Shown: positions 3,911 through 41,955 of the stretch, in pieces
Layout of the letters: every line of letters begins with the position of its first letter
How positions within the stretch are numbered: position 1 is the first letter of the stretch
Source of the DNA: a virus
Lineage: Duplodnaviria > Caudoviricetes
Virus record (IMG/VR): IMGVR_UViG_3300049019_000034
Location: 1 to 45,862 of that record
DNA length: 45,862 nucleotides
Reading direction: 5' to 3' (one strand)
Position numbers and translations under genes: made by a program
The notes under the pieces: generated by a model
Told to the model about the DNA's origin: nothing
Databases searched by the model: none
Seen by the model: only the letters and a program-made list of their open reading frames with translations

Positions 3911-6900
3911 CTAGCGGGTCTTGCTCTCCGGGCTGGCCACCCCTGTGACCAGCCCGCGCGCCGCGTCCGCGGTGCTCGTGGGGCTGATCGTGCCCTGGTC
4001 CACGCCGGCCAGGTAGCCCAGCGGCCTGGCCACAGCCGTGGCGGGCAAACCGGTCGCGATGCTCACCAAGCTGGCCACGTCGCGGATGGCGTTCTTCTGG
4101 TTGATCTCGTCGCCCTTGGCCAGCTTGTACGCGTCGACCGGCACGCCGGCCGCAGCCTCGAGCATGCTGACTGCCGGGCTGGCGCTGACGCGGTCGTCGG
4201 CCGGGTTGCCGTTGAACCGGTTGATGCCGGCCATGGCGAGCTGCCCGACGAAGGGCACCATGGCGAACGCGCCCTTAATGGTGCCCATGCCGAAGACGGC
4301 GGCGATCCAATCGTCCAGGTAGCCGTCGCCCTCGGGATCGTCCGGGCCGCCCTTCATTGCCACCGCGATGGACTCGGCCACCCAAAGCGGCACCATCAGG
4401 CCGAGCATCACCACGCCGAAGGCGCGCCCGGCGCCGACGCGCAGGCCCACGTCCTGGCGGATCTGCTTCAGCGCGGTGGCGTTGGTGTTCGCCATCATGT
4501 TGAAGTAGCCGATGAACTGGGTGAACAGCCGCGCATAGGCCGGGCCGGTCTCGATGCGGCTCACATCCTCGGGCAGCGTGCTGCCCTGGGTCTGGCGGAT
4601 CACGCCATCGGCGTAGTGCACGGCCTCGGCGGCAGCCAGGCCCTTCGCCAGCGCGCCGTTGTAGGCGCTGGTCCAGATGATCGGGCCCATCGTGTTGTCG
4701 AGCGCCGACTGCAGGAAGTAGGCGTGTTTCGACGTCCAGGCCTGCGCCTTCTCCAGCAGGCCGGGGTCCAGCAGGATGTCGTTCATCTGCTGGTTGATTG
4801 CGGCGATCTCGTTGTCCATGCGGTTGGCCATGAAGGGGCTCAGCGCCGCCACGTCGCGCGCCATCTTCTTGGGGCCGCTCGACACCATCTGCGCGGCCGC
4901 GCGCAGCATGCTGGACTCCAGGCCGTCGGCCTTGATCTTGGAGAAGGCGTTGGAGAACCCGGTCAGCTGCTGGATGGCGTTGCTGACGTTGCCGAACATC
5001 AGCGCCATGCCGGCGCGCGCTCGCGCGGCCGACAGCACCCGGCTGATCCGGCCGTCGCCCATCACCGGCGTCTCGACGATCTGCTTCGCGCTGCGGTTCA
5101 GCCAGGGGGTGAGCATGCCCGCGTAGATCGTCGGGTCCAGGTGGTTCAGCGGCGAGCTGACGGCCGGCCGCGACAGCAGGCGCTGCACGTCGCGCACCGC
5201 CGGCTCCATGTGCGCGAACAGCAGCACCTTGTCGATGTGCTGGCCGATAGTGCGCAGGTCCAGGATGAGCGGGCGGTTGTAGTCCACTCGGGCCTTGGTG
5301 AAGCCCTTGCTGGTGGTCGGGAACGAATAGGCCATCGCCTCGTTCTCGGTGTTCTGCAGCGCGCGCAGGTCGGCGTCGGGCACGATGCGCGTGTCGGCCA
5401 TCGCCGGCACATAGCCGCCGCGGTAGGTGCCAAACGGCGTCACGAAGCCGTCCGCCGTTACCTCGTCGAAGTACCGGCCGAACACGTCGCGGTGCGCCTT
5501 CTGCGCCAGCGGCTTGGTCTGCTCCAACAGATCCCAGACGCCCTGGGCAAAGTCATAGTGCACCTTGCCGAGCACACCCTCGTCGTGCATGCGCTTGACG
5601 AAGGCGTCCCACTTGCTGGTGTCCAGCGTGCCGTCGGCGTTTTCGCTGGCCCACTTGCGGCCCAGCAGCAGCTTGCGCTTGTTGCTCTCGTTGCCGGTGT
5701 GCAGGATGGCGTGCAGCAGCTCCGCGTGGCCGATGCCGTTGTGGCCCCGGCCGAAGGTGTAGCCGCGGGGGCCCAGCTCCGGGGCCTGGATCAGACCCTT
5801 GCGCAGGCTGGGCGCCACCGCGTCGACCAGCGCCTGGTACGCCTTGCGATAAGTCAACCGATCGGTGCGGTAGGCCTCTGCCGCGAACTTCACCGGCTGG
5901 AACACCAGGCGCAGGAACGGGCCGCCGAAACTGCCGTCCATTCCCTCAGCCCACTGCTCAGCGCGGCGCAGCAGGCTGCCGGCGTGCTGCAGCCAGCGCG
6001 TGCGGATCTCGCCCGGCGTCAGCGCCCCGGCCTCGCCGGGCAGCGTTGCGGGCACACCCAGCGCGTCCAGGCGCTGCGACAGCTCGGCAGCCGCGTCGTC
6101 GATGTCCAGCAGGTTGCCGCCCACCTCCATCATGCGGCTGCGCTTGGCCAGGTGCCACAGGCTCTGGATCTCCTCGTGCAGGCTCTGCAGCTGCTCGAAG
6201 GTCAGCGCCGTGAGCGGCTGGGCCATGTTCAGCGCGCCCTGCACCGACGGCTGCAGCGCGGCGTGCAGCTGCGGGTCGTGCTTCTCGACGCGGTCGAGGT
6301 AGTCCGCCGCGCCGCGGGTGGCCGGCGTGTCGATGCCGTAGGCGGCCAGGATGGCGCGCGCAGCGTTGACGATGTCCGGGTCGCGACCCTTCTCCACCGT
6401 CTTCTCGTTCGTGCCTTGGGCCACCTTGCCGAAGAAGGTGACGATCTTCCGACCCTCGGCCAGCGCGTCCATCGCGGCGCGCGCGGCGGCGTTGTTCAGC
6501 ACCTGGTCGCGCTTGGCCTGCACGGCTTCCTCGGTCTGGCCCTTGGCGGTTGCCTCCTGCCAGCGGCGCGCGGCGCGGCGCTCGGCCGCCGTGTGCTGCC
6601 AGGCGGTGGCGCGCAGGTCGCGCAGCGATGTCCGCGCCACCACGCGGGCGCCGAACTGGCGCGCGGCCTCGGCCAGCGCGTTGACGGTGATCTTCGCGCC
6701 GGCGGCGTTGGTCTGGCCGGTGTCAGTGCGCTGGCCCAGCAGGTCGGCCTGCGCCTTCAGCTCGGTGGCCAGCGCCTTCGCGCGGGCTTCGTTGTGCACC
6801 GCCTCGTTGGCCGCGTCGGCGATGGCGCGCGGGTCCACCAGATCGCCGTGCTGCTCCAGCATCAACTGATCGGTGCGGCCCTCCACCGCCGACAGCGGCG

Positions 6901-9900
6901 GTTCGGCGGCCAGCAGCGCTTCCACCATGGTCTGGCCATCCGAAAAGCCGAATGCGTCGGCGAGGATGTCGGGGTGGATGCCGCCGCTCTTCAGCGTCAT
7001 GCGCATGGCTTCGATCTTTTCGACCGCGCCCTCGGGCACCCCCAGGCCCTTCAGGTCCACTAGGTCGAAGCGGCCGGCGTTGAGCTCGTGCACGTCGACG
7101 CCCTCCCCGCCACGCTCGGACTCGAGGAAATACTGCTTGGCAATCGAGTATTGCGCCTCGCCCCGGATCTCCGCCTGCACCAGCTCTTCCAACTCGGCCA
7201 GGTCGTAGCGCCCATCTGCACTGGGCAGCAGGTAGCCGGTCTCGGCCAGCGCTTCGCCCATCGCGTCGGCGCTCATGCCGCCTTCCACGCGGAAGACGGG
7301 TTTGCCGAAGACGCCCGACGGATGGTTGAAGTCGTCCACCGACACGCCCAGGTGCTGGGCCGCGCTGCCTCGCTGGATGCCGCCCATCTTGGCGATGGCC
7401 ACCAGCAGCGAATCCTTGGACGGATCCAGAGTGGCGGGGTCGCTCTTCGCACGCTCGGTGAGCGTCTTGGCCCGGTCCTCGCCGCTCACTTTTGCGGTGA
7501 GGAATGACCAGAGCCGATAGACCGGCTGGCTCATGATCTCGCGCCGGGCGTCGATGCGCACTTCGCGCCGCAGCACCTTGGCCTGCGCCTGCAGCGCCTT
7601 CAGCGCCTTGCTGCGGGCGTTGATCGTCCACTTCAGATCCCGAATGGATCGCGCCGTCAGCCGGTCCAGCGCCTCGCCGGTGGCGGTCTCGTCGGGCAGC
7701 ATGCCCGCGATCTCCTCGGCCTGCTCGATCTGGTCCTGGCTGGCCAGCATGCGGTCCAGCACCTGGCGCACCTCGTCGGACAGCTGCGGGCCGTCGGTGT
7801 TGCCGGTGGCGAACTGCTGCAGCGAGCGGTAGACGCTCAGCACCCAGGCCCGGAAACGACGCAGCACCGGCGCTAGCTCGACGCTAGGCGCCTTGCCCTC
7901 GATCAGGTACTGCTCCACGCTCTCGGCGAAGCGCTCGTGATACGGGCGCTGCTCGTCCAGAGTCATGCCCTGCCAGGTGGCGAGGTCCGGCACGCCGAAC
8001 CACTTCAGCAGCACGCCCATGTCCTCGACCACCCCGGCCGGTGCGTCCGGCTGGCTGGCGATGTCGGCCATCACCTCCAGGAAGAAGTGGCCGGTCTCGT
8101 GGAAGAAGGTCGTCAGGTCGGCCGTAGGCGACAGGGCCAGCTCCAGGCTCTGCGGGTTGAAGCTGCCGCGAGCCTGCTGGAAGAACAGCGGATCGAACTG
8201 CTTCACCGCCTTGCCGCGCGCAGCGTCGTCGCCTTTGGCGTAGGTGCGCACATCGGTGACGCCGGCCGCGCGCAGCGCCTCCAGCACCGCAGGCTCGGTG
8301 CCCTCGGGCACCACGGCCCCCTTGAACTCGGACAGGCTGACATCGCGCAGCACCTTGGCCTCAAAGTAGGCGGTGGGCAGGTTGCGCAAACGGGTGAGGA
8401 ACTGCGCCGCCTTCTGCGCGGCGGCCTCGCTGATCTCGAAGCCGTAGGACTTGGCGGCCTTTGCCATGCCCATCTTGGCTGCGTCTTCCAGGATGCTGAT
8501 GGCGGTGTCCGACGACAGGCTCGGGTCGATGGCTTCCATTACCGCGTTGAATTCGGCATCCACCTCCTTCTTGACGACTTCGAACTCATCGGCGCTGACC
8601 AGCCGGCCCTTCTCCTTCTTGATGGCCGCTAGGCTCTTGAACTCGGGTGTGAACTTCGCGCGTAGCGAGCCCACCCCGTAGTTGAAGGACTCGCCGCCGC
8701 GCAGTTCTTTCTTCAGCAGCTTGACCACGTTCTCCAGCGTGTGCGGGAGGTACTTGCGGTTGCCGCTGTTCGTGAAGCCCTGAAAAATACGCTCGGACTT
8801 GGTGGCCCTGGACAGCTCGGCCTGCACCCATTGCTGATAGGCGTCGGCCAGGTTGCCTTCGGCGATCTGCTTCTCCATCGCCTGTTGCGTGGCACTGCGG
8901 TCGGCCTCGGGCCGGGCGCGCAGCTTGGCGCCGTTGACGATCTCGTGGGCGACGTTGCGCGCCCACCCCTCGCTGATCTCGGGATCTAGCGCCCACTTTT
9001 CATAGCGAGCGCGCTTCGCGTCGTTCGCCCCAATCAGCAAGCTGTCCAGCTGCTCAGCGATGGCGGCCCGCGTGAACGTCTCGTTCTCCAGCAGGTCGTA
9101 GATGCTGGTGACGTCCAGGAACGGGCCGAGGCCGAACTCCTCCAGACGCGCCTGGCGCGCGGCATCCATGCCTCCGCGCATCACGACATTCGGCTCCACG
9201 CCCTGCTCCTGCAGGAAGGTGCCCATGACGGCAATGCTGCGCTCCAGCTCACGCTGCCCGTCGCGCTGCAGCTCCGACGCGCCGGGCAGCGTGTCGCCCA
9301 TCTTCTCGGCCATGGGCTTGACGCGCTTAGTCAGCGCCGCCACGGCCTTGTTGTCCAGCTCGCGCTCCACGCTAGGGTAACGCGGGCTGTAGATGTCAGC
9401 CCCGAACACCTTCGTGCCGGCGTAGCCCTTGGGGTCGGCCAGGTTGCTGTCGCCGATCAGCGTGATCTCGCCGAAGTTGGTGAGCGGGTTGTCCTTCTTC
9501 GTGATGGCCAGGCTGGGCACCGGCAAGCCGCCCATCTTGACGGCGTGCATGAGGTTGGCCGCCGTCAGGTTGTGCGTCACCACCAGGTCGCGCTCGGCCG
9601 GCGCCGACTGCGCTAGCCCCGCGCCTGTCTGTTCGACGATCCGCAGCGGGTACTTGGCCGCGAACTCCTCGGGCGTCAGCCCGGTGCGGCCGGCCATGGT
9701 CGTGTAGAAGGCCGCGGCCCAGGTGGCATAGCCCTCGTTCACGGCCTGGCGGAACCGGCCCAGGGTGTTGAGCTGGTCCAGCACCTGCTGGCGCACGCGA
9801 TCGCTGCTCTCCTGCATGGCCTTGACATCTTGAGCCTGGGCCAGCACGCGCTGCGCTTCGGTCTCCAGGTATTGCGCGGCCTGCTCGCCGGCCTGCTTCG

Positions 9901-11398
9901 CCTCGGCCTGGCTCATCTCGTTGTTGCCGATGCGCGCGTGCTGCAACAGCACCTGCTCCAGCGGCGTGCCCGTGGCGCCGGCCAGGAACTCGCCGACGGG
10001 GATTCGCACCTCGGCGCCGGACTCGGTGGCCGCGACGATCTGGTCGGCAACGCTGGGCAGCGCCTGCTTGATGGCCTCGGCATCCATGCCGGATTGCTGC
10101 AGCGTCTCGGACAGCGTGCGCGCGTCGAAGCGGATCTCGTTGTCGCCGGCCATCTCACCCAGCACGGCGCGCAGCTCGTCGGGGCTGCGGTCGCGCAGCT
10201 TGGACTCGCCCGCCGCCTTCAGCGCATCGGCCAGTGCATCCGCGCTGCGCTGCGCCTCGATGCCTTCGAAGCGCATGCCCATCACGCTCTCGGCCACCTT
10301 CTGGATGCCCTTGACCGCACCGATCTGCGTGCCGCCGCCCACCAGCGTGGCGATGACGGTCTGCGCCAGCGCCTCGGGCTGTTCCTTCAGGAACTCGGCC
10401 AGCGACTTCTCGGGGTTCAGGTTCGTCCACTCGTTGAAGTTCTGCCACAGCGTGGCCGCGAGTTCGCCGGGCACTTCCTTGGTGACTTCGTAGATGGCCA
10501 GTTTCGTGGCGGACGCCCCGGCCTTGATGCCCTGCAGCAGCCCGGAGGCGCCGAGGTACTTCTCGGTCAGCACCTCGGCCACCGCATCCTGCGCACCGTA
10601 TGCCGTGGCGCGCAGCGGGCTCAGGCCTGCATCGCGCGCCTTGCCGTAGCTCTGGCCGCCCGTCACCAGGCCCATCGCTGCCAGCATGGCCTTCTCGCCC
10701 AAGGCCATCAGGCCCAGCGGCAGCGTGACCAGGTTCTGGCCGGCCGACTGGAAGCCGGACATGACGGACTTCTCGACCATGCCCGCGCCCGGGTCTTCGC
10801 CGGCCACCGCGGCGGCAGTGGCGTCAGCGCCCGCGCCGAGATAGCGCAGGAACCCCTCGGGGCCGGGACTGCCAACGATCTGCCGGCGCTTGGTGCCGGT
10901 GATCCAGGCCGCCGCGTCGTCCAGCGCCTGCAGGCCCTGGTCGGCCAGGCCGAAGACGGACGCCGTGGCGTTGTAGGCGCCCGCATTGAACTTCGGCGCC
11001 CCCGACGCAATGCTGCGCCCCGCGCGAGCCACGTCTCCCACCAGCCCGCCGCGGTCGGCGCCGGGCGCGCTGACGAGGTAGCGCACGGCGGCGCCGATCT
11101 TGGACAGCGCACCGCTGTCGTCGTGCGCGAGCTTCGCGAAGTCCGCGTCGCTGAACCGATCCTCCAGCACCGGGTGCGTCTCGGCGTCGGCCTGGACCTG
11201 GCGCACCTTGGCCTGAGCCTCCAGCGCGGGCATGGCCTGAACGACTGCCGTGGGGTAGCCGAGATACCCGGCCACGCGGCGCTGGGTGCTGAACTGGTCG
11301 GGGTTGACGGTCACCGCAGTGGTGAGGTTGCCCGCCAGGGCCTGGCGCTTGCGGTCCGTCTCGGCCGCCATCAGGTCGTCGAATACGGAGTCGCTCAT
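3911..11398 (-). CDS. Large internal virion (ejection) polyvalent protein, 2495 aa
   Basis: Last and largest gene of the internal-virion cluster; LPD22-like N-terminus (NPD..G.P..FAKLAHDD); zincin motif HETGH (8087-8101) with downstream HERFAE; inserted modules. Confidence 0.85.
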   Translation of the reverse strand: MSDSVFDDLMAAETDRKRQALAGNLTTAVTVNPDQFSTQRRVAGYLGYPTAVVQAMPALEAQAKVRQVQADAETHPVLEDRFSDADFAKLAHDDSGALSKIGAAVRYLVSAPGADRGGLVGDVARAGRSIASGAPKFNAGAYNATASVFGLADQGLQALDDAAAWITGTKRRQIVGSPGPEGFLRYLGAGADATAAAVAGEDPGAGMVEKSVMSGFQSAGQNLVTLPLGLMALGEKAMLAAMGLVTGGQSYGKARDAGLSPLRATAYGAQDAVAEVLTEKYLGASGLLQGIKAGASATKLAIYEVTKEVPGELAATLWQNFNEWTNLNPEKSLAEFLKEQPEALAQTVIATLVGGGTQIGAVKGIQKVAESVMGMRFEGIEAQRSADALADALKAAGESKLRDRSPDELRAVLGEMAGDNEIRFDARTLSETLQQSGMDAEAIKQALPSVADQIVAATESGAEVRIPVGEFLAGATGTPLEQVLLQHARIGNNEMSQAEAKQAGEQAAQYLETEAQRVLAQAQDVKAMQESSDRVRQQVLDQLNTLGRFRQAVNEGYATWAAAFYTTMAGRTGLTPEEFAAKYPLRIVEQTGAGLAQSAPAERDLVVTHNLTAANLMHAVKMGGLPVPSLAITKKDNPLTNFGEITLIGDSNLADPKGYAGTKVFGADIYSPRYPSVERELDNKAVAALTKRVKPMAEKMGDTLPGASELQRDGQRELERSIAVMGTFLQEQGVEPNVVMRGGMDAARQARLEEFGLGPFLDVTSIYDLLENETFTRAAIAEQLDSLLIGANDAKRARYEKWALDPEISEGWARNVAHEIVNGAKLRARPEADRSATQQAMEKQIAEGNLADAYQQWVQAELSRATKSERIFQGFTNSGNRKYLPHTLENVVKLLKKELRGGESFNYGVGSLRAKFTPEFKSLAAIKKEKGRLVSADEFEVVKKEVDAEFNAVMEAIDPSLSSDTAISILEDAAKMGMAKAAKSYGFEISEAAAQKAAQFLTRLRNLPTAYFEAKVLRDVSLSEFKGAVVPEGTEPAVLEALRAAGVTDVRTYAKGDDAARGKAVKQFDPLFFQQARGSFNPQSLELALSPTADLTTFFHETGHFFLEVMADIASQPDAPAGVVEDMGVLLKWFGVPDLATWQGMTLDEQRPYHERFAESVEQYLIEGKAPSVELAPVLRRFRAWVLSVYRSLQQFATGNTDGPQLSDEVRQVLDRMLASQDQIEQAEEIAGMLPDETATGEALDRLTARSIRDLKWTINARSKALKALQAQAKVLRREVRIDARREIMSQPVYRLWSFLTAKVSGEDRAKTLTERAKSDPATLDPSKDSLLVAIAKMGGIQRGSAAQHLGVSVDDFNHPSGVFGKPVFRVEGGMSADAMGEALAETGYLLPSADGRYDLAELEELVQAEIRGEAQYSIAKQYFLESERGGEGVDVHELNAGRFDLVDLKGLGVPEGAVEKIEAMRMTLKSGGIHPDILADAFGFSDGQTMVEALLAAEPPLSAVEGRTDQLMLEQHGDLVDPRAIADAANEAVHNEARAKALATELKAQADLLGQRTDTGQTNAAGAKITVNALAEAARQFGARVVARTSLRDLRATAWQHTAAERRAARRWQEATAKGQTEEAVQAKRDQVLNNAAARAAMDALAEGRKIVTFFGKVAQGTNEKTVEKGRDPDIVNAARAILAAYGIDTPATRGAADYLDRVEKHDPQLHAALQPSVQGALNMAQPLTALTFEQLQSLHEEIQSLWHLAKRSRMMEVGGNLLDIDDAAAELSQRLDALGVPATLPGEAGALTPGEIRTRWLQHAGSLLRRAEQWAEGMDGSFGGPFLRLVFQPVKFAAEAYRTDRLTYRKAYQALVDAVAPSLRKGLIQAPELGPRGYTFGRGHNGIGHAELLHAILHTGNESNKRKLLLGRKWASENADGTLDTSKWDAFVKRMHDEGVLGKVHYDFAQGVWDLLEQTKPLAQKAHRDVFGRYFDEVTADGFVTPFGTYRGGYVPAMADTRIVPDADLRALQNTENEAMAYSFPTTSKGFTKARVDYNRPLILDLRTIGQHIDKVLLFAHMEPAVRDVQRLLSRPAVSSPLNHLDPTIYAGMLTPWLNRSAKQIVETPVMGDGRISRVLSAARARAGMALMFGNVSNAIQQLTGFSNAFSKIKADGLESSMLRAAAQMVSSGPKKMARDVAALSPFMANRMDNEIAAINQQMNDILLDPGLLEKAQAWTSKHAYFLQSALDNTMGPIIWTSAYNGALAKGLAAAEAVHYADGVIRQTQGSTLPEDVSRIETGPAYARLFTQFIGYFNMMANTNATALKQIRQDVGLRVGAGRAFGVVMLGLMVPLWVAESIAVAMKGGPDDPEGDGYLDDWIAAVFGMGTIKGAFAMVPFVGQLAMAGINRFNGNPADDRVSASPAVSMLEAAAGVPVDAYKLAKGDEINQKNAIRDVASLVSIATGLPATAVARPLGYLAGVDQGTISPTSTADAARGLVTGVASPESKTR

Positions 11399-33238: not shown

Positions 33239-33787
33239 ATGAAGATCAAACTCACCAACGTCCGCCTGGCCTTTCCGACTCTGTTCGAGGCCAAGACCGT
33301 CAACGGCGAAGGCAAGCCGGCGTTCAGCGCCAGCTTTCTCATCGACCCGGCTGACCCGCAGGTCAAGGCGATCAACGCCGCCATCGACGCCACCGCGCAG
33401 GAGAAGTGGGGCGCCAAGGCCGCCGCGCAGCTCGTGCAGATGCGCAAGGCCGACAAGGTTTGCCTGCACGACGGCGACCTGAAGGCCACCTACGACGGCT
33501 TCCCCGGCAACCTCTACATCTCGGCGCGCAACCCCATGCGCCCCACGGTGGTGGACGCCGACAAGACGCCACTCGTCGAGGCCGACGGCAAGCCCTACGC
33601 CGGCTGCTACGTGCACGCCGTGCTGGAGCTCTGGGCGCAGGACAACCAATTCGGCAAGCGCGTCAACGCCACGCTGATGGGAGTCCAGTTCTTCCGCGAC
33701 GGTGACAGCTTCACCGGCGGCGGCGTGGCCAGCGACGACGACTTCGACGACGTCACCAGCGGCGCGACCGCTGACGACCTCGCCTAA
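33239..33787 (+). CDS. DUF2815 single-stranded DNA-binding protein
   Basis: NVRLAFP.LF, LHDGD, YAGCYV, GVQFFRDGD motifs; acidic tail. Confidence 0.92.
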   Translation: MKIKLTNVRLAFPTLFEAKTVNGEGKPAFSASFLIDPADPQVKAINAAIDATAQEKWGAKAAAQLVQMRKADKVCLHDGDLKATYDGFPGNLYISARNPMRPTVVDADKTPLVEADGKPYAGCYVHAVLELWAQDNQFGKRVNATLMGVQFFRDGDSFTGGGVASDDDFDDVTSGATADDLA

Positions 33788-33798
33788 CAGAGAACGCC

Positions 33799-34041
33799 AT
33801 GCGAGTTCGCTCCATCGAAGGCCAGCCCTTCAACACAGCCGACGGGACCATCAACTTCACGGCTGAGGAGCTTGTCTCCAAGGCCATTCACGAGGCGTCG
33901 TTTGGCAGCCGGGGGCAGATCGAAGCCTTGAAGGCGCAGGTGGATTGCCTGGCAGAGATCGTCGGCCGCCTCGTCGAGTGGGTTCCCGAGAAAGACCGCC
34001 TCGCGGTCACGGGCTTGTCTCACCGCCTCGAACGCATCTGA
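33799..34041 (+). CDS. Hypothetical protein
   Basis: 80-aa ORF 11 nt after the SSB gene. Confidence 0.6.
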   Translation: MRVRSIEGQPFNTADGTINFTAEELVSKAIHEASFGSRGQIEALKAQVDCLAEIVGRLVEWVPEKDRLAVTGLSHRLERI

Positions 34042-34327
34042 CACGACGGGCCGGGGCTTCGGCCCCGGTGCTTGTGGGTCTTGCCCACATCCTCCCCGCG
34101 ACCGGCCCAGCGCGGGACAGAGCCACCTCATCGGCCGCGCGCCAGCCCCAAGACCTTGACGGCGCGAGGCCTAGCACCCGGCGGGCAAGAGGCAACGCGA
34201 TTGGCCGGGATGTCGTGGCCTGGGCCATGTCTCCGAATTGCTGAATCACAAAAAAGATTCCACAACCTGTATTTGTTGAATCACAATAAATAGACGCTTC
34301 GCCCATCAACCCACAGGACGCAGATAC

Positions 34328-34606
34328 GTGAGCACCACTTGCAAACCCAGCGAAGTCACCCGGCTCTGGTTCGACGGCGAACAGGGATTGACCCGCGCCT
34401 ACGGCGTCTCGGCAGACCTCGTCGCGATGCCGCGCATCGCCGGCATGCCGGAACACCTGCGCGCCATCGACTTCGCGCCGGCCATGCGCGTGTTCATGCT
34501 CCGCGAGAGCGGCCAGGCGTGGCGCGAGATGACGTCAACCGAACGCGCCCTGTCGCTGGAGTTCCTGGCCAAGATCGCCGAGGCGGTTCGCGGGGTGGTG
34601 GCATGA
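34328..34606 (+). CDS. Hypothetical protein
   Basis: AGGA RBS; follows an AT-rich promoter-like island at 34235-34295. Confidence 0.6.
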   Translation: MSTTCKPSEVTRLWFDGEQGLTRAYGVSADLVAMPRIAGMPEHLRAIDFAPAMRVFMLRESGQAWREMTSTERALSLEFLAKIAEAVRGVVA

Positions 34607-35083
34607 CCCCGCAGGAGGCATTCGCGGCCCTGCCGACCTGGCTGCGCACACGGGCAGACATGCAGGCGCTGGGCGAGGCTTGCGCAATGAGCGCCGGTGC
34701 CCGCGCAGGGGGCGGGCCTGACGGATGAGCAGTTGACCGACATCATCGCGGCCGGGCTGAGCGGCACCTATCACTGCACCCGAGTGTGGGAGGCGTGGAG
34801 CGTCGGCACCATGAGCCAGGATGACTTTGAGCCGGTGGACGAATCCGACACGCCCGGCGAGATCGCCCAAGCCATCCGCGCCGCCATCACCCAGGCGCCG
34901 GCCGCCGAACACATGCAGGCCCATAGGGCGGCTGCGCTGGAGGAGGCCGCGAAGGTGTGCGAGGACTGGGAGAAAGGCTTTCGGCAGACCGCCGACGGCG
35001 CGTCCGATGGCCGCTATGACTGGAAGGCGGACGGCGCTGGCGAGTGCGCTGCTGCCATCCGTGAACTGTCCAAGATGGACTGA
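34603..35083 (+). CDS. Modular Ead/Ea22-type accessory protein, split into two frames (34603-34728 and 34697-35083)
   Basis: ATGA-coupled start at 34603; the downstream frame begins at the linker PAQGAGLTDEQ without a clear RBS; ends with the common ALEEAAKVCE..CAAAIR module. Confidence 0.5.
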
Positions 35084-35112
35084 CCCACGATTCCTCTACT
35101 TGGAACTGACCC

Positions 35113-35745
35113 ATGACAAAACTCTCCGACCGCGAGCGCATCCTGACCACCCTGGTGGATCGCCTTTCCACAACGATGCTGCTGCGCCCCAACGGCCGTG
35201 TGCATGACGCCGACTCGTTCAGCGACGGCAACGGCGGCCACTACGTGCACTTCGCCTACTACCGCAAGCCCGTCAAGGGCGATCTGGTCATCGGCAAGAC
35301 GGGCCGCATCGATCAATGGAAGGTGGGCTTCTACGAGGAGCACAAAGACCCGTCGATGGGCCTGCACGTCATCCGTGACATCAACACCGGCCAGCTCTGC
35401 GACTACGGCAACGAGGAGTTTGTGCCCATCGTGGGCCTGCACTACACCGACATGCTGGTGGGCGATGAGCGCGGCCTGTACGACAAGGTGCTGGGCGCCT
35501 TCCACGAGGGCGACGAGTACATGTACCGCTACGGCGGCTTCAAGGTTGACGGCAGCCGGGCCGTCATCCGAGTGCGCGAAGCGTTCGGCGGCATGGGCGG
35601 CAAGCAGAGCGTGCCGTTTGAGATCGCCATCGACTGGACGCCAGAGACGACCGTCGTGGAAATCCTGGCTGCGATGCGCGCGGGTGGCTACGGCACCAAG
35701 AGCTTCCGCCCCGAACCGGCCGACGACGACGAAGCCAATACCTAA
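35113..35745 (+). CDS. Hypothetical protein
   Basis: 210-aa ORF with phage-like codon usage in the accessory array. Confidence 0.75.
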   Translation: MTKLSDRERILTTLVDRLSTTMLLRPNGRVHDADSFSDGNGGHYVHFAYYRKPVKGDLVIGKTGRIDQWKVGFYEEHKDPSMGLHVIRDINTGQLCDYGNEEFVPIVGLHYTDMLVGDERGLYDKVLGAFHEGDEYMYRYGGFKVDGSRAVIRVREAFGGMGGKQSVPFEIAIDWTPETTVVEILAAMRAGGYGTKSFRPEPADDDEANT

Positions 35746-35754
35746 GCCTCGACC

Positions 35755-36018
35755 ATGAACCACACCAACATGCCAATCATGCGGGCCACGCTGCTCGCCA
35801 ACATCCCGATGGCCGTCCTGGCGCCGCACGAGAAGCAGGCGCTTCAGAACCACGGCCAGACGCTGGAGAAGCTGGCCAGCCGGGGCGGGCTCTCCGCGTC
35901 CGAAGCGCTGGCGGTGCTGGAGGACCGTCCCTGGCGTCAGCCGGTCAGCCAGCAAGAGACCGAGATTGCGGTCATCAACAAGGTGCGCGAGTGGCGAGCC
36001 GCCCAGCGCACCGCCTGA
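35755..36018 (+). CDS. Conserved phage hypothetical protein
   Basis: PHEKQALQNHGQTLEKLASRGGL..E motif recurrent in phage accessory genes. Confidence 0.75.
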   Translation: MNHTNMPIMRATLLANIPMAVLAPHEKQALQNHGQTLEKLASRGGLSASEALAVLEDRPWRQPVSQQETEIAVINKVREWRAAQRTA

Positions 36019-36085
36019 AGCCAAGCCCCCGACTGTGGGGCGCCGTCTCCACACCACATTCCCCAACCGCCCAGAAAGGCAAATC

Positions 36086-36493
36086 ATGATGAGCATCGGC
36101 TCCGGTATCCGCGACGAATGGAAGTTCACATACACCGCCGTCAAGCTGGCTGAAGGCGCCCGCGCGCAAAAGGCTTTCCGCGAGTCGCGCGCGGCCTGGT
36201 GGAGCGAGCAGAAGGCCAAGGTCATGGCTGACATTCGCGAGTCTGGCGTCAGCGTGAGCGAGAGCGTCGCCTCCTCGATCAGCAACTACGCCACCCAGTC
36301 TGTCGGCCACGGCCCCCAGGTCACGATCAACGCCGACTTGCAACGCAAGCTGGCCGAGTGCCACTCCAAGATCGGCACGCATACCCAGGCCGTCGCGGAG
36401 TACGACGGCTGGATTCAGGTGCTGGAGGCCAACCCGGAGCAGCGCCTGGAGCTGACCCAGGCCGACTGGCTCTACTTCTTCGGCAAGGCCTGA
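36086..36493 (+). CDS. Conserved phage hypothetical protein
   Basis: GAAAGG RBS; RDEWKFTY..DWLYFFG pattern. Confidence 0.75.
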   Translation: MMSIGSGIRDEWKFTYTAVKLAEGARAQKAFRESRAAWWSEQKAKVMADIRESGVSVSESVASSISNYATQSVGHGPQVTINADLQRKLAECHSKIGTHTQAVAEYDGWIQVLEANPEQRLELTQADWLYFFGKA

Positions 36494-36562
36494 CGAACTG
36501 CGGGCCGGCTCGCGCTGGCCCGTCCTTCCCATCCCCCGAACTCACACCCACAGGAGCACACC

Positions 36563-36823
36563 ATGCATGACCGCATCGGAAACATCGGCCAGCCAGTCGG
36601 CATCGAAGAGGCTGCGCGACGCATGGGCCTGATGTTGAACCCGTCCAAGCCAGACCTTCGCAAGAGCGTCGAAGACCTGCTTCGACATCACGGCGGCCAC
36701 GAGGTCATCAAGACCGTGCTCGCGCTGCTGAAGGCAGAGGCCAAGGCCGCTGACGCCCAGCAAGCGAAGGCCAAGGAGGCGCTTGATCTGGCGACCCAGG
36801 CCGCCGCCGAGTCCCTTACTTGA
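36563..36823 (+). CDS. Hypothetical protein
   Basis: AGGAG RBS; 86-aa helical ORF. Confidence 0.7.
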   Translation: MHDRIGNIGQPVGIEEAARRMGLMLNPSKPDLRKSVEDLLRHHGGHEVIKTVLALLKAEAKAADAQQAKAKEALDLATQAAAESLT

Positions 36824-36832
36824 AGCCTACCC

Positions 36833-37462
36833 ATGAACACACCCAATCTCTTTGAGGCCCGCCGTTTGTCTTGCCTGCACGCAGCAATGGCGCAGAACTA
36901 CTCCAGCGGGCACCGGTGGGACCACCTGGACGGCAAGGCCAGCACGGAGGCCGCCGCCATGCTCCTCGCCCTGGCCGACGAGAACGAGCGGCTTCGCGCC
37001 CGGGCGGGGCCGGCTGGCTGGAAGCTGGTGCCGGTGGATGCGACGCCTGAGATGCTGGACGCGGCATCAGCATCTCAGGACCGAGGGGACTGGATAGGTG
37101 GCGCCTACTTCAAGCGAGCATGGCCGGCAATGCTCGCCGCCTCCCCCGCCGCCCCGGCGCAGCAGGCCGCGCCGGTTTGCCCCGCTTGCAAAGGCTCAGG
37201 CGAAGGCGGCAGCTACCACGTACCTGGCACGGAGGCCGACTCCGTGGATGGGCCGTGCCACGATTGCGGCGGCTCCGGAGAACCGCCACAGCAGGCCGAG
37301 CCGCTGACGGATGAGCGAGTGAGCGCAATCTACAGGGCGCTCGGAATCACCTTCCTGGTGCCGGGCGACTACGACCGCAACCTGTTCACCCGCACCGATG
37401 ACGTGACGCTGAAGCAGTTGATTCGCGCCGTCGAGCGCGCCCACGGCATCAAGGCCGCCTGA
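36833..37462 (+). CDS. Modular Ead/Ea22-like protein with CxxCxGxG zinc finger
   Basis: LADENERLR, GWKLVP..TPEML..AMLAASP, CPACKGSG..CHDCGGSG, EPLTDE..RAVERAHGI modules. Confidence 0.75.
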   Translation: MNTPNLFEARRLSCLHAAMAQNYSSGHRWDHLDGKASTEAAAMLLALADENERLRARAGPAGWKLVPVDATPEMLDAASASQDRGDWIGGAYFKRAWPAMLAASPAAPAQQAAPVCPACKGSGEGGSYHVPGTEADSVDGPCHDCGGSGEPPQQAEPLTDERVSAIYRALGITFLVPGDYDRNLFTRTDDVTLKQLIRAVERAHGIKAA

Positions 37463-37528
37463 AATTCCCACCCTTTGGAACTGGGCATTGCCCAGCAACC
37501 TTTTCCCCACCAGCCAGAAAGGCACCCC

Positions 37529-38035
37529 ATGAACGACCAACAGATCGAAGCCGCAGTCCAGGCCAAGGGTCTGACCGCCCCGCGCGTGCGCCTCGCCGAC
37601 ATCGAGGACGCTATCGAGCGCATCGACATCGTGAAGCACGTCTCCACGTCAGGCCAGGTGCTGCGCTGGGCCGTACTGAACATGCGCAACGGCTTCGCCA
37701 TCACCGGCCGCCCGTCCTGTTCCGTCTCGCCCGAGAACGACGACGAAGACCTGGGCAAGAAGATCGCCACCGACAACGCCATCAGCGAGGCGTGGCCGCT
37801 GCTGGGCTACGCCCTGAAGGAGCGCCTGGCCGCCGTGCCTGCCGACTTCCGTGACCGCGTGCGCCTGGAGCTGCGCGAGCTGGATGCCAAGATCGACGCG
37901 CTGGCGAAGTTCCTGCCCACCGATCGGTTCGCCAGCTTGCCGCCCGAGGAGCAGGAGCGCATGACCTCGCAACTCGCCGCCATGCAGGACTACAGCGGCT
38001 GCCTGACCGAGCGCGTCGCCGCGTTCACGGCCTGA
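37529..38035 (+). CDS. Gp49 (N4 gp49/Sf6 gp66)-family domain fused to a crAss001_48/T4 DenB.1-like helical domain; putative anti-defence nucleotide sponge
   Basis: TAPRV..NGFAITG..SVSPENDDE.LG.KIA..NA...WPLLGY.L, then FRDRV..E..ELD.K..AL.KF..F..L...EQ.....Q..AM..Y...L.ER. Confidence 0.82.
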   Translation: MNDQQIEAAVQAKGLTAPRVRLADIEDAIERIDIVKHVSTSGQVLRWAVLNMRNGFAITGRPSCSVSPENDDEDLGKKIATDNAISEAWPLLGYALKERLAAVPADFRDRVRLELRELDAKIDALAKFLPTDRFASLPPEEQERMTSQLAAMQDYSGCLTERVAAFTA

Positions 38036-38101
38036 CCGAGCGCTGACCGTGCCCGGCGTGCCGGGCATCAGTGAACGCTTTCCCATCCCCCGAACTCATC
38101 C

Positions 38102-38377
38102 ATGAACACGCAACATACGCCGGGCCAGTGGCTGGCGAGCGCCGGCCAAGTCCACGATGCGCATGGCTCGCTCATCGCCGTGGTGATGGCCCATGACACG
38201 CCCGTCGGCGCTGCCAACGCGCGCCTGATCGCGGCGGCGCCCGAGCTGCTGGAGGCGCTGCTGGCCTTCGATGCAGTGGACCGCTTCTCCCTCTGGCACC
38301 AGAACTACGCGCCGGCCATCGAAAAGGCGCGAGCTGCCATGGCCAAAGCCATCGGCGCCGATCCGACCCACCCTTGA
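38102..38377 (+). CDS. Conserved phage protein (HTPG.W / ANARLIAAAPELLEAL family)
   Basis: Diagnostic motifs present. Confidence 0.8.
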   Translation: MNTQHTPGQWLASAGQVHDAHGSLIAVVMAHDTPVGAANARLIAAAPELLEALLAFDAVDRFSLWHQNYAPAIEKARAAMAKAIGADPTHP

Positions 38378-38386
38378 AGCCTGCCC

Positions 38387-38653
38387 ATGACCGAAGCTGA
38401 CCGCACCGTGACACGCCTCAAGGCGAAGCTGGCTCGCCGCGACCGCAAGATCGCTGGCCTGCAGCGCAAGCTGGAGATGACGCAGCGCACCCTCGCCATG
38501 CAGAGCATGCTGGTGCAGCGGCTGCCCATCGACGTGGAGCGCGCCGTTCAGCGAGCCCTGTGCAACGTCCGCATGATCCCCGTGCTGGGCATTGCAGGGT
38601 CCGACCGGATCGTCGAAGTCCGGGCCGCCGACAAAAGCCAATCCCCCGCTTGA
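38387..38653 (+). CDS. Hypothetical coiled-coil protein
   Basis: 88-aa basic ORF flanked by conserved junction motifs. Confidence 0.65.
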   Translation: MTEADRTVTRLKAKLARRDRKIAGLQRKLEMTQRTLAMQSMLVQRLPIDVERAVQRALCNVRMIPVLGIAGSDRIVEVRAADKSQSPA

Positions 38654-38664
38654 AAGTCTCCACC

Positions 38665-39846
38665 ATGACAGAACAGATCACCCCCGGCTCCGTCTACGTC
38701 AAGCTCACCCGTCCCGAAGGCTATGAAGACGTGGCGCCCGAGCTGGTGCTGGAAGACGCCGGCATGCACCCCGCGTTCTCGCCCGAGGACGTGACGGCCG
38801 AGATCGAGCGGCTGCGCGCCCAGGTGGCGCCGGCTGTGGCCCTCCTTGCAGACGTGCTCGATGAGCTCTTGGACGGGGCCGACCCTTTCTTGCCGTTGAC
38901 CCGCAAGGCCGCCGACGCCCTCGCCGCCTATCGCGCCGCTCCGGCACAGCAGGCCGAGCCGACGCCCGACTTCCTGGCGGGCACCTTCATCCAGCACGTC
39001 CAGAACGTGGCCGGCGTACCTGGCCACTGGCCCGACGAGTTCCTGGCTTGGTACAAGCCGGCCGACTGGCTGACCGAGGAGCGCGCCGTGGCCGTGTTCC
39101 TGGGGCAGAAGCTAGCTGCCCCATCCCTGACGGTTGGGGAGGGGCCGGCGGCCAGTGTCATCGCGACGGCGCCCAAGCGCATCTGGCTCAACGTGTTCGA
39201 CGCACCCGAGAACACGGACGGCGACAAGCTGTTCCCCAGCGACCACGAGGGCATCACCTGGGCCGAGGACGAGGTGGGCGACTATGACGTGCAGTACATC
39301 CGCGCCGACTTGGTTCAGCCTGCCGCGCAGGCAGAGCCGGTGGCGTGGTGCGAACTCACGCCGGCCGGGAAGATCGCCTACTTCGACGGCAGGCCGATGG
39401 TGATGCCTGGGCCGGTCGGCAACGACTGCCACACCACGCCCCTCTATGCCCATCATCCCGCGCAGGGGGTGGGGGGCGAACGGTCGGCGTTTGAGACGTG
39501 GATCACCGAGACGCTGAACTACGGCTATGACCTGGAGCGCGACGCTGGGCTGGGCGAGGGCTACACGCACGACGCCACGGACACCGCGTGGCTCGCGTGG
39601 CAAGCCCGCGCCGCCCTTGCCCAGGCGCCGGCCGCCGAGCCGACCGACGCTGACGTTGACAAGGCATGGCACCGCTTTGAAGCCGAGTTGCAGCGGGGAG
39701 CAGAGGCGCGGGATGCAATGCGGTATCGGTTCCTGCGGGATGCTGACCGCAGCGACCCGGCCATCGACTTTGAGTTGCTGCTCAGCCTTGCGATGGACAG
39801 CCTGGACGATGCCGTTGACGCCGCCATGGCCGCCGAGAAGCCCTGA
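38665..39846 (+). CDS. Large modular Ead/Ea22-like accessory protein
   Basis: String of short modules (AEIERLR; TAPKRIWL..ITW..DVQYIRADL; EPVAW..TPLY; ERSAFE.W..WLAWQARA; DAMRYRFLR..LDDAVDAAM) joined by Pro/Ala/Gln linkers. Confidence 0.8.
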   Translation: MTEQITPGSVYVKLTRPEGYEDVAPELVLEDAGMHPAFSPEDVTAEIERLRAQVAPAVALLADVLDELLDGADPFLPLTRKAADALAAYRAAPAQQAEPTPDFLAGTFIQHVQNVAGVPGHWPDEFLAWYKPADWLTEERAVAVFLGQKLAAPSLTVGEGPAASVIATAPKRIWLNVFDAPENTDGDKLFPSDHEGITWAEDEVGDYDVQYIRADLVQPAAQAEPVAWCELTPAGKIAYFDGRPMVMPGPVGNDCHTTPLYAHHPAQGVGGERSAFETWITETLNYGYDLERDAGLGEGYTHDATDTAWLAWQARAALAQAPAAEPTDADVDKAWHRFEAELQRGAEARDAMRYRFLRDADRSDPAIDFELLLSLAMDSLDDAVDAAMAAEKP

Positions 39847-39870
39847 CTTTCGAATCCCCGAGAACTATCC

Positions 39871-41955
39871 ATGACGAAGCTCTGGCTCGACCTCGAGACC
39901 TACAGCGAGGTGCCGATCACCAACGGCACGCACGCATATGCGGCCGGCGCCGAGATCATGCTGATGGCATGGGCGCTGGCCGATGGCCCGGTGGGCGTGT
40001 GGGACTGCACGCTGGCGCGCGCCATGCCCGATGCGCTGGAGGCTGCGCTGCAAGATCCGGCCGTCGAGATTTGGGCGCATAACAGCCACTTCGACCGCAC
40101 CGTCCTGCGCCATTGCTACGACGCTTACCGCGACGAGTGGATCAGCTACCCGGGCGACGCCAGCCGCTGGCGCGACACCCTCGTCCAGGCCCTGAGCCAC
40201 GGCCTGCCGGCCGGCCTGGCCGCGCTGTGCGACGTGCTGAAGGTGCCGACCGACAAGGCGAAGGACAAGGCCGGCAAGCAGCTGATCCAACTGTTCTGCA
40301 AGCCGCGCCCAGCCACCAGCAAGATCCGCCGCGCGACGCGCCAGACGCACCCTGTCGAGTGGGCGCGGTTCGTGGAGTACGCCGGCCTGGACATCGAGGC
40401 GATGCGCGAGTGCCACAAGCGCATGCCGATGTGGAACTACCGGGGCGGCGAGCTGGGGCTGTGGCACCTCGACCAGCGCATCAATGACCGCGGCATGTGC
40501 ATGGACGTGCCCCTCGCGCACGCTGCCGTGCAGGCCGTCGACATGGCGCAGACGGCGCTGGCCAAGCGCACGATGGAGCTGACCGAGGGCCAGGTGGCCA
40601 GTGCCACGAAGCGCGACCAGCTGCTGCGCCACATCCTCGAGGCCTTCGGCGTCGACCTGCCCGACATGCAGATGTCCACCCTGGAGCGGCGCATCGCCGA
40701 CCCGGACCTGCCTGTCGCGCTGCGCGAGCTGCTCGGCATCCGCCTGCAGGCCAGCACCAGCAGCACCAGCAAGTACAAGACCCTGATCAAGGCCACCAGC
40801 GCCGACGGCCGCCTGCGCGGCACGAAGCAGTTCAACGGCGCCGGTCGCACCGGTCGCTGGGCCGGCCGGCTGTTCCAGCCCGACAACATGCCCCGGCCCG
40901 CGCTCAAGGCCGAGCAGATCGACGCCGGCATCGACGCGCTGATGGCGGGCTGCGCGGATCTCGTGGTGGACAACGTGATGGAGCTGACCAGCAGCGCCAT
41001 CCGCGGCACCATCATCGCGCCCGAGGGCAAGAAGCTGGTGGTCGCCGACCTGTCCAACATCGAGGGCCGGGATCAGGCCTGGCTGACTGGCGAGACCTGG
41101 AAGCTCAAGGCCTTCCGCGCGTTCGACGGCGGTACCGGCCACGACCTCTACAAGATGTCCTACGGCAAGTCCTTCGGCGTGGCGCCCGAGGACGTGACGA
41201 AGGACCAGCGCCAGGTGGGCAAGGTGCAGGAGCTGGCCCTGGGCTACGAGGGTGGCGTGGGCGCGTTCGTCACCTTCGCCGCGGCCTACAACATCGACCT
41301 GGAGCAGCTGCCGTCGAAGGTGCTGCCGCTGGCGCCAGAGTGGGCGCGCAACGAGGCCAACAGCTTCTATGCCTGGACCGTCAAGGAGCGCCGGCCCACC
41401 TTCGGCCTGAGCCAGGACGCATTCATCGCCTGCGACGTGCTCAAGCGCGTCTGGCGCAATGCCCACGCCAACATCGCCGCGCACTGGGCCGAGCTCAAGG
41501 GCGTCGTGATGCAGGCTATCGAGATGCCCGGCAACACCTTCCCGTGCGGCAAGGTCAAGGTGCGCCGCGATGGCAACTGGCTGCGCATCGGCCTGCCCAG
41601 CGGCCGCGCGCTCTGCTACCCGTCGCCCCAGATCGTGGACGGCGCCATCACCTACATGGGCCTGAACCAGTACAGCCGGAAGTGGTGCCGCCTGAAGACC
41701 TACGGCGGCAAGCTCTTCGAGAACATCTGCCAGGCCGTCGCGCGCGACGTGATGGCCCACAACATGCCCGGCATCGAGGCCGCGGGCTACGAGATCGTGC
41801 TCACAGTGCACGACGAGGTGATCTGCGAGGCGCCTGACTCGGACGAGTTCAACCCCGAACACCTGGCCGGCCTGCTGGCCGCCAACCCACCCTGGGCCGC
41901 GGACATGCCGCTGGCCGCCGCGGGCTTCGAAACCTACCGCTACCGGAAGGACTGA
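39871..41955 (+). CDS. Family A DNA polymerase with 3'-5' exonuclease
   Basis: Exo motifs LDLET, HNSHFD, YAGLD; TGRW; motif A DLSNIE; motif B RQVGKVQELALGY; motif C VHDE. Confidence 0.95.
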   Translation: MTKLWLDLETYSEVPITNGTHAYAAGAEIMLMAWALADGPVGVWDCTLARAMPDALEAALQDPAVEIWAHNSHFDRTVLRHCYDAYRDEWISYPGDASRWRDTLVQALSHGLPAGLAALCDVLKVPTDKAKDKAGKQLIQLFCKPRPATSKIRRATRQTHPVEWARFVEYAGLDIEAMRECHKRMPMWNYRGGELGLWHLDQRINDRGMCMDVPLAHAAVQAVDMAQTALAKRTMELTEGQVASATKRDQLLRHILEAFGVDLPDMQMSTLERRIADPDLPVALRELLGIRLQASTSSTSKYKTLIKATSADGRLRGTKQFNGAGRTGRWAGRLFQPDNMPRPALKAEQIDAGIDALMAGCADLVVDNVMELTSSAIRGTIIAPEGKKLVVADLSNIEGRDQAWLTGETWKLKAFRAFDGGTGHDLYKMSYGKSFGVAPEDVTKDQRQVGKVQELALGYEGGVGAFVTFAAAYNIDLEQLPSKVLPLAPEWARNEANSFYAWTVKERRPTFGLSQDAFIACDVLKRVWRNAHANIAAHWAELKGVVMQAIEMPGNTFPCGKVKVRRDGNWLRIGLPSGRALCYPSPQIVDGAITYMGLNQYSRKWCRLKTYGGKLFENICQAVARDVMAHNMPGIEAAGYEIVLTVHDEVICEAPDSDEFNPEHLAGLLAANPPWAADMPLAAAGFETYRYRKD

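Follow-up and report, generated by a model that had tools for sequence, protein, structure and literature searches.

The gene at the centre of this study joins an Acb4-family domain to a Sequestin domain in a single reading frame (Table 1), and taken as a whole the encoded protein is best explained as a non-catalytic double sponge, which, by analogy with a tested homologue, likely withdraws the alarm nucleotides of both Thoeris and CBASS immunity. The window that we analysed, i.e. the whole stretch of DNA of 45,862 bases, is an entire virus record that is estimated to be complete. Its genes for terminase, head, tail and internal virion proteins, primase, a family A polymerase, an SNF2 helicase, an excisionase and an integrase indicate that the virus is a temperate podophage, and the fusion gene is located in the early/replication region of its genome. 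We take this phage to resemble Bordetella phage BPP-1. Among named carriers of the Acb4 half, Roseateles aquatilis is the closest (71% over residues 1-101), and the full-length relatives among the matches listed bear the labels Leptothrix and Rubrivivax, which together point to a host that probably belongs to the Burkholderiales. Amid the internal virion genes, the minus strand (3911-11398) encodes a 2,495-aa protein with a full-length match to phrog_9880, a family of unknown function.

Table 1. Positions in the window of the fusion gene, its parts and its surroundings
Feature	Position	Strand	Basis or remark
Acb4-Sequestin fusion gene, 168 aa (P0001)	37529..38035	+	ATG at 37529, stop to 38035
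Acb4-family domain, residues 1-100 (PF13876 match 25-100)	37529..37828	+	Pfam, profile search, Foldseek, VIA-align
R46-W47 and D71, subtype marks of the Acb4 domain	37664-37669; 37739-37741	+	Alignment
Five-residue linker	37829..37843	+	Junction where relatives differ in tail
Sequestin (PF21825) helical hairpin, residues 106-164, with R110/E114/Q148/R162	37844..38020	+	Pfam, AlphaFold2 model, alignment
AAGG, likely ribosome-binding site (inferred)	37519..37522	+	6 nt upstream of ATG
Variable accessory slot, ssDNA-binding protein gene to DNA polymerase gene	33788..39870	+	Fusion and 11 function-unknown ORFs
19-nt exact direct repeat	copy 1 36526-36544; copy 2 38080-38098	+	Sequence search

Gene and domain architecture

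Both halves of the protein match their families in Pfam above the cut-off: PF13876 at residues 25-100 (E = 4.6e-14, 53.1 bits against a cut-off of 27) and PF21825, or crAss001_48, at residues 106-164 (E = 2.3e-16, 59.9 bits against a cut-off of 24.8). A first-pass annotation of this DNA had seen a Gp49/Sf6 gp66-type domain fused to a helical domain of about 60 residues that resembles crAss001_48/T4 DenB.1, and had taken the first family to include Acb4 and the second to be that of Sequestin. The HMM comparison of the two domains bears out this architecture, and the family names agree with two preprints, in which PF13876 defines Acb4, a tetramer that binds 3'3'-cGAMP (Chang et al., bioRxiv 10.1101/2024.12.30.630793), and PF21825 is Sequestin, with a T4 member named Y16O (Tal et al., bioRxiv 10.1101/2025.07.12.664507). 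The AlphaFold2 model of the fusion, built on an alignment of 60 sequences, has a mean pLDDT of 91.8 and begins with an alpha/beta domain, behind which a helical hairpin occupies residues 107-166.

The junction between the two halves is spanned by a single contig with zero mismatches in all four of the sequencing runs that were compared, from four studies (one run is flagged as a possible source), and these identical contigs rule out an assembly chimera. An alternative TTG start at 37475, upstream of the ATG, was rejected because the closest relatives share the start Met at 37529. Acb4 followed by Sequestin is a common architecture among homologues: the best 120 of 1,861 comprise 69 Acb4-Sequestin proteins, 2 with the domains in the reverse order, 40 Acb4 proteins that lack a recognised tail of either kind, and 9 in which Acb4 is joined to an unnamed region, here called domain X. 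One Acb4-family homologue in a Pseudomonas phage (H16, BK061477.1, 23060-23413) is annotated as 'Anti-CRISPR protein', possibly a mislabel.

A tested homologue and the proposed function

The fusion design is not new, as it has already been published and tested in a homologue. Tal et al. (10.1101/2025.07.12.664507) present PF21825 as the commonest fusion partner of Acb4, this being the route to its discovery, with 91 Pfam fusions, and include a model of the PF21825/Acb4 fusion of phage YH6. The tested Acb4-Sequestin fusion is gp59 of Pseudomonas phage vB_PaeP_C2-10_Ab09 (bioRxiv 10.64898/2026.06.04.730250). According to that preprint, gp59 is a tetramer that binds gcADPR tightly, 3'3'-cGAMP less so, and 2'3'-cAA as well; it is a strong inhibitor of type I Thoeris and a partial one of type II-A CBASS, it triggers Panoptes, and its deletion alone caused no change in Ab09 because of redundancy. 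The first-pass idea of one polypeptide directed against both CBASS and Thoeris is therefore not new, and it stands only in part for the protein described here: the mechanism has been demonstrated for Ab09 gp59, but nine of ten contact positions in the Acb4 pocket are changed here, one of them to Asp71.

The two proteins are 36% identical over 112 aligned residues (pairwise alignment, E = 7e-19). They have identical Pfam domains in identical order within a single reading frame, both possess the R/E/Q/R residues of Sequestin, and both are encoded in an accessory region that follows the gene for an ssDNA-binding protein. The protein studied here differs from gp59 in an N-terminal extension that is longer by about 20 residues, and its host genome is that of a temperate podophage with an integrase, whereas Ab09 is lytic and N4-like. 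With this protein, a counter-defence design that was tested in lytic N4-like phages is found in a temperate podophage as well, one whose host is probably a member of the Burkholderiales.

The domains, the predicted fold, the residues and the spread of the protein come directly from the present analysis; for the oligomer, the ligands, the timing of expression and the effect on defence we infer the following from gp59 and the family papers. The fusion protein would act early in infection and would soak up the Thoeris and CBASS signals without catalysis. The Acb4 halves would assemble into a tetramer, and the Sequestin hairpins into antiparallel dimers. Trapping of 3'cADPR (1''-3' gcADPR) in the Sequestin pockets is very probable and would keep type I Thoeris ThsA off, and the Acb4 pockets likely trap a cyclic dinucleotide. 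For the Acb4 half we slightly favour 3'3'-cGAMP over any other ligand, with binding that is probably weaker. Such binding of signals would likely make the phage vulnerable to decoy systems, e.g. Panoptes or PanDA.

The Acb4 domain and its pocket

In the predicted model the N-terminal half has the Acb4 fold, with the dsRBD-like alpha-beta-beta-beta-alpha arrangement of PDB 9E4W. Because a single-sequence PDB search with the whole protein gave nothing significant (best E 0.46), a profile was needed, and a profile of 60 fusions returned SPO1 Acb4 (9e4w, E = 7.4e-05) as the sole PDB match with E < 0.4. Chains of 9e4w take all of ranks 1-10 in Foldseek, at modest E values (6.7e-3 to 2.1e-2), and the best match in VIA-align is 9e4w_N (Z 9.4, rmsd 2.4 Å over 74 residues), a Z score that lies less than 1 above those of unrelated helical-hairpin rows, which match the Sequestin half instead. 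The protein resembles SPO1 Acb4 in family, predicted fold, F48 and the pocket-loop frame N-x-x-x-x-I/L-G, but the two are about 19-24% identical in structural alignments, nine of the ten contact residues that are named are not identical, and the protein here carries the fused Sequestin.

These contacts of SPO1 Acb4 with 3'3'-cGAMP are K36, F48, E49, V56, Y57, F62, N63, I66, T70 and K81, with the position of K36 placed through a two-residue extension of the alignment. One is identical here (F48 = F56), one is similar (I66 = L75), and E49, F62 and K81 are replaced by A57, D71 and P90. Ab09 gp59, in contrast, retains the equivalents of F62, I66 and K81, where the protein here has D71, L75 and P90 together with R46-W47. 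The R46-W47 pair always occurs with D71 (118 of 118 rows), while the remaining 68 of 68 rows carry Phe at that position; these counts are based on 186 of 198 aligned rows, after the removal of 12 partial ones, and on a set of rows biased to the query. All three positions are invariant among the former rows, and by their sequences the R46-W47/D71 Acb4s are a subtype with a fixed, variant pocket. The VLRWA motif is present in 16 rows of the table of 1,331 from Chang et al. (10.1101/2024.12.30.630793), and neither an Asp at the F62 position nor a member of the subtype occurs among the six tested Acb4 sequences that could be compared from the available material (SPO1 and 5 of 8 homologues). Neither the R-W/D subtype nor domain X is described in the passages of open papers and preprints that we searched.

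Most of these changes carry little weight, because tested binders vary at the same positions too. Chang et al. (10.1101/2024.12.30.630793) report binding of 3'3'-cGAMP by all 8 Acb4 homologues tested, and in a by-eye alignment of those binders available to us there are changes with respect to SPO1 at F48, E49, V56, F62 and K81, such as Pro at K81 in PA15, Ala at F48 plus Gln at F62 in the Variovorax protein, and Thr at E49 in N4. The same preprint reports lower binding for pocket mutants of SPO1 Acb4, F62A being one of those made. Because 9 of 10 contacts differ, and because the change from Phe62 to Asp71 is absent from the tested homologues compared, anti-CBASS activity is less secure in this protein than anti-Thoeris activity.

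This raises the question of whether the Sequestin half is normal while the pocket of the Acb4 half has been remodelled, through R46, W47, A57, R61-P62, S65 and D71, to prefer a nucleotide other than 3'3'-cGAMP, which we regard as unlikely. A different base preference (e.g. for c-di-GMP or a pyrimidine-containing signal) would be conceivable because an acid has been lost at the guanine pocket of SPO1 and one gained at the adenine pocket. The strict linkage and invariance of the three subtype residues are consistent with such a change, as is the statement by Chang et al. (10.1101/2024.12.30.630793) that F62, V56 and I66 of SPO1 keep guanine out of the adenine pocket. Preference also varies already within the family, since N4 Acb4 binds c-di-AMP (111 nM; 10.64898/2026.08.10.743972) and SPO1 Acb4 does not, as reported in 10.1101/2024.12.30.630793. 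However, shared descent by itself predicts perfect co-occurrence and explains that of R-W with D71, the Variovorax homologue still bound 3'3'-cGAMP despite its substitutions (aligned by eye), and c-di-GMP was bound by none of the homologues in the panel of Chang et al. (10.1101/2024.12.30.630793). The ligand of this subtype could show whether Acb4 proteins reach signals beyond the known ones.

It is more improbable still that the Acb4 half binds no signal and acts as a tetramer scaffold for interchangeable cargo domains, leaving Sequestin as the sole sponge. The charged D71 at a hydrophobic pocket position would fit such a role, as would the different tails borne by Acb4 halves that are alike at 90-96 of 100 residues, and the only partial anti-CBASS effect of Ab09 gp59. 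A scaffold is nevertheless disfavoured because many subtype members stand alone, at about 102-105 aa, and would have no cargo, and the altered positions are invariant rather than drifting. The double sponge, in which both halves would bind signals, remains the reading that we prefer.

The Sequestin domain

Every testable feature of the C-terminal half agrees with membership in Sequestin. The domain aligns without gaps to the active SequestinB, with 26 of 65 residues identical in a hand count, and R110, E114, Q148 and R162 correspond to R7, E11, Q45 and R59 of SequestinB at exactly the same spacing, and also to R8, E12, Q47 and R61 of SequestinA. Tal et al. (bioRxiv 10.1101/2025.07.12.664507) report that E11, Q45 and R59 of SequestinB are required for activity and that R7 was mutated as well, and in 74 aligned Sequestin domains the four residues are conserved in 74, 74, 74 and 73, respectively. 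The predicted model places the hairpin helices at 107-128 and 139-166 (block pLDDT 85-98), and so has the two-helix hairpin of 60-80 aa that characterises Sequestin. A fold search with this half gave generic hairpins only, a Sequestin entry being absent among the matches listed. Alike in the hairpin, the ungapped alignment with SequestinB and the four mutated pocket residues, the domain differs from SequestinA and SequestinB in its location behind Acb4 as part of a fusion rather than as a stand-alone protein.

Tal et al. (10.1101/2025.07.12.664507) found 10 of 13 PF21825 proteins active on type I Thoeris and 3 of 13 without effect, but with all four pocket residues present at the exact SequestinB spacing it is very improbable that the domain here is likewise inactive on Thoeris, or that it binds another ADPR-type signal.

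Exchange of tails and domain X

Acb4 halves that are 82-93% identical to the one described here bear other tails. In near relatives Sequestin is replaced by domain X, a region of about 50-70 aa with the motif RFLxW...GTNLL, which is absent from the window itself. Its carriers (P0023, P0024, P0028, P0031, P0037, P0039, P0040, P0107 and P0118; L007-L027; L148-L210) include proteins in which X is inserted within Acb4 (L012, L014, L019, L022, L169) and others in which it is combined with Sequestin (L027, L150, L160), with Tad2 (L199) or with an Acb2-like domain (P0136, P0173 and, slightly below the cut-off, L020). A quick tree built from 117 domains of the subtype places the fusion in a clade of 18 rows (SH-aLRT 98) with 7 Sequestin tails, 7 domain X tails and 4 others; tail labels change 31 times on this tree in total, but well-supported branches demand only 2-3 changes per label. 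The same Acb4 subtype also occurs with a phrog_872 tail (P0052, P0090), with a phrog_8618 tail (P0070, P0085) and with an N-terminal domain (P0050, P0084, the latter phrog_2293, and P0103), and P0022 has an extra N-terminus of about 100 aa. A phrog_872-type domain is matched in 18 of 80 Acb4 loci.

Domain X also exists alone, as proteins of 63-72 aa in 7 of the 52 clusters from a motif scan; stand-alone members are exemplified by P0123 and L158 (1378-1572). Among the best 120 of 327 longer carriers, a set biased by the query, X lies behind Acb4 in 39, within it in 24 and ahead of it in 3, and accompanies Sequestin in 1, while 2 of the remaining 53 have a member of the Acb2/Tad1 hairpin family. 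Of the 52 motif-selected clusters, 5 have a Pfam partner above the cut-off, 4 of which are sponges (Sequestin 2, Acb4 1, Tad2 1) and the fifth DUF551; the other 47 have no such partner. X is joined also to a MazG-like region (by eye and from one source name) and to many unknown regions, and it was found in 0 of 80 Acb4 loci sampled irrespective of X. GTNLL is present in 31 rows, many of them near-copies, of the Sequestin file of Tal et al. (10.1101/2025.07.12.664507) and in 5 rows of the table of Chang et al. (10.1101/2024.12.30.630793); a single GTNL match in the screen table of Tal et al. is an unrelated protein. X would be missing from the Pfam-based fusion search of Tal et al. because it has no Pfam entry.

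We found no family match for domain X in Pfam, among 40 members searched against PHROGs, in the PDB by sequence, or in an NCBIfam scan that included two carriers near the query. Its model is of middling confidence (pLDDT 71), fold searches with this model were without a match (best Z 3.1, best E 1.7), and the first matches in the ESM Atlas (0.82 and 0.89) are unnamed clusters that serve as leads only. The swappable tail nonetheless points to a domain that joins four sponge families, and like reasoning led to Sequestin; domain X is a candidate new sponge or anti-defence module. Sponge activity of X, if confirmed, would add a sponge to those known and might reveal a new immune signal. Taken jointly, the proposals that the R46-W47/D71 Acb4 binds a different alarm nucleotide, that it forms the centre of a kit of exchangeable sponge domains and that X is a new sponge family are tentative, and we doubt that all of them hold.

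The accessory slot and its neighbouring genes

The slot that holds the fusion gene measures 6.1 kb. Of 37 related loci, 30 possess both flanking genes, and in these the slot spans 24 to 3,684 bases. Within it, the two copies of the 19-nt repeat, of which 0.04 would be expected by chance (with one copy as the query), flank a 1,554-bp block of three genes that ends with the fusion gene. Each copy is located directly behind a GC-rich hairpin and directly ahead of a gene start, and the pair may mark the border of a cassette. The hairpins beside the fusion gene are not significant (z -1.15 to -1.74), and a promoter/terminator scan of 33700-39900 gave nothing exceeding shuffles. The sequencing runs listed as containing this DNA include none of RNA.

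The first-pass annotation had extended its reading to the neighbouring genes as anti-defence candidates, and here the data give it no direct support. Searches of Pfam, PHROGs and NCBIfam assign none of the 11 neighbouring ORFs to an anti-defence family, tblastn against 80 other Acb4 loci gives no match for any of them at 5 kb or less from Acb4, and the window holds no convincing match to Bes1 or Bes2 of Ab09 (best E 0.11 and 0.05) or to Ab09 gp58. Among further known sponges, PF11195 has no match in the window, and neither has PF24729, a result of little weight because the control genomes are blank likewise. The 11 neighbours are best regarded as accessory genes, and the notion that the fusion marks them out is not supported. 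Of the neighbour ORFs, one alone has a counterpart in the related slots, in 1 of 30. A sponge-like gene is found in 2 of the 30, namely an Acb4 in L109 (near 8199) and an Acb2-like gene in L118 (near 8904), which favours the first-pass idea weakly and indirectly. The ORFs at 36833-37462, 38665-39846 and 34697-35083 share short stretches of DNA (42 nt at 86%, 33 nt at 91% and 40 nt at 70%), and this patchwork similarity is as expected for module shuffling via short homology.
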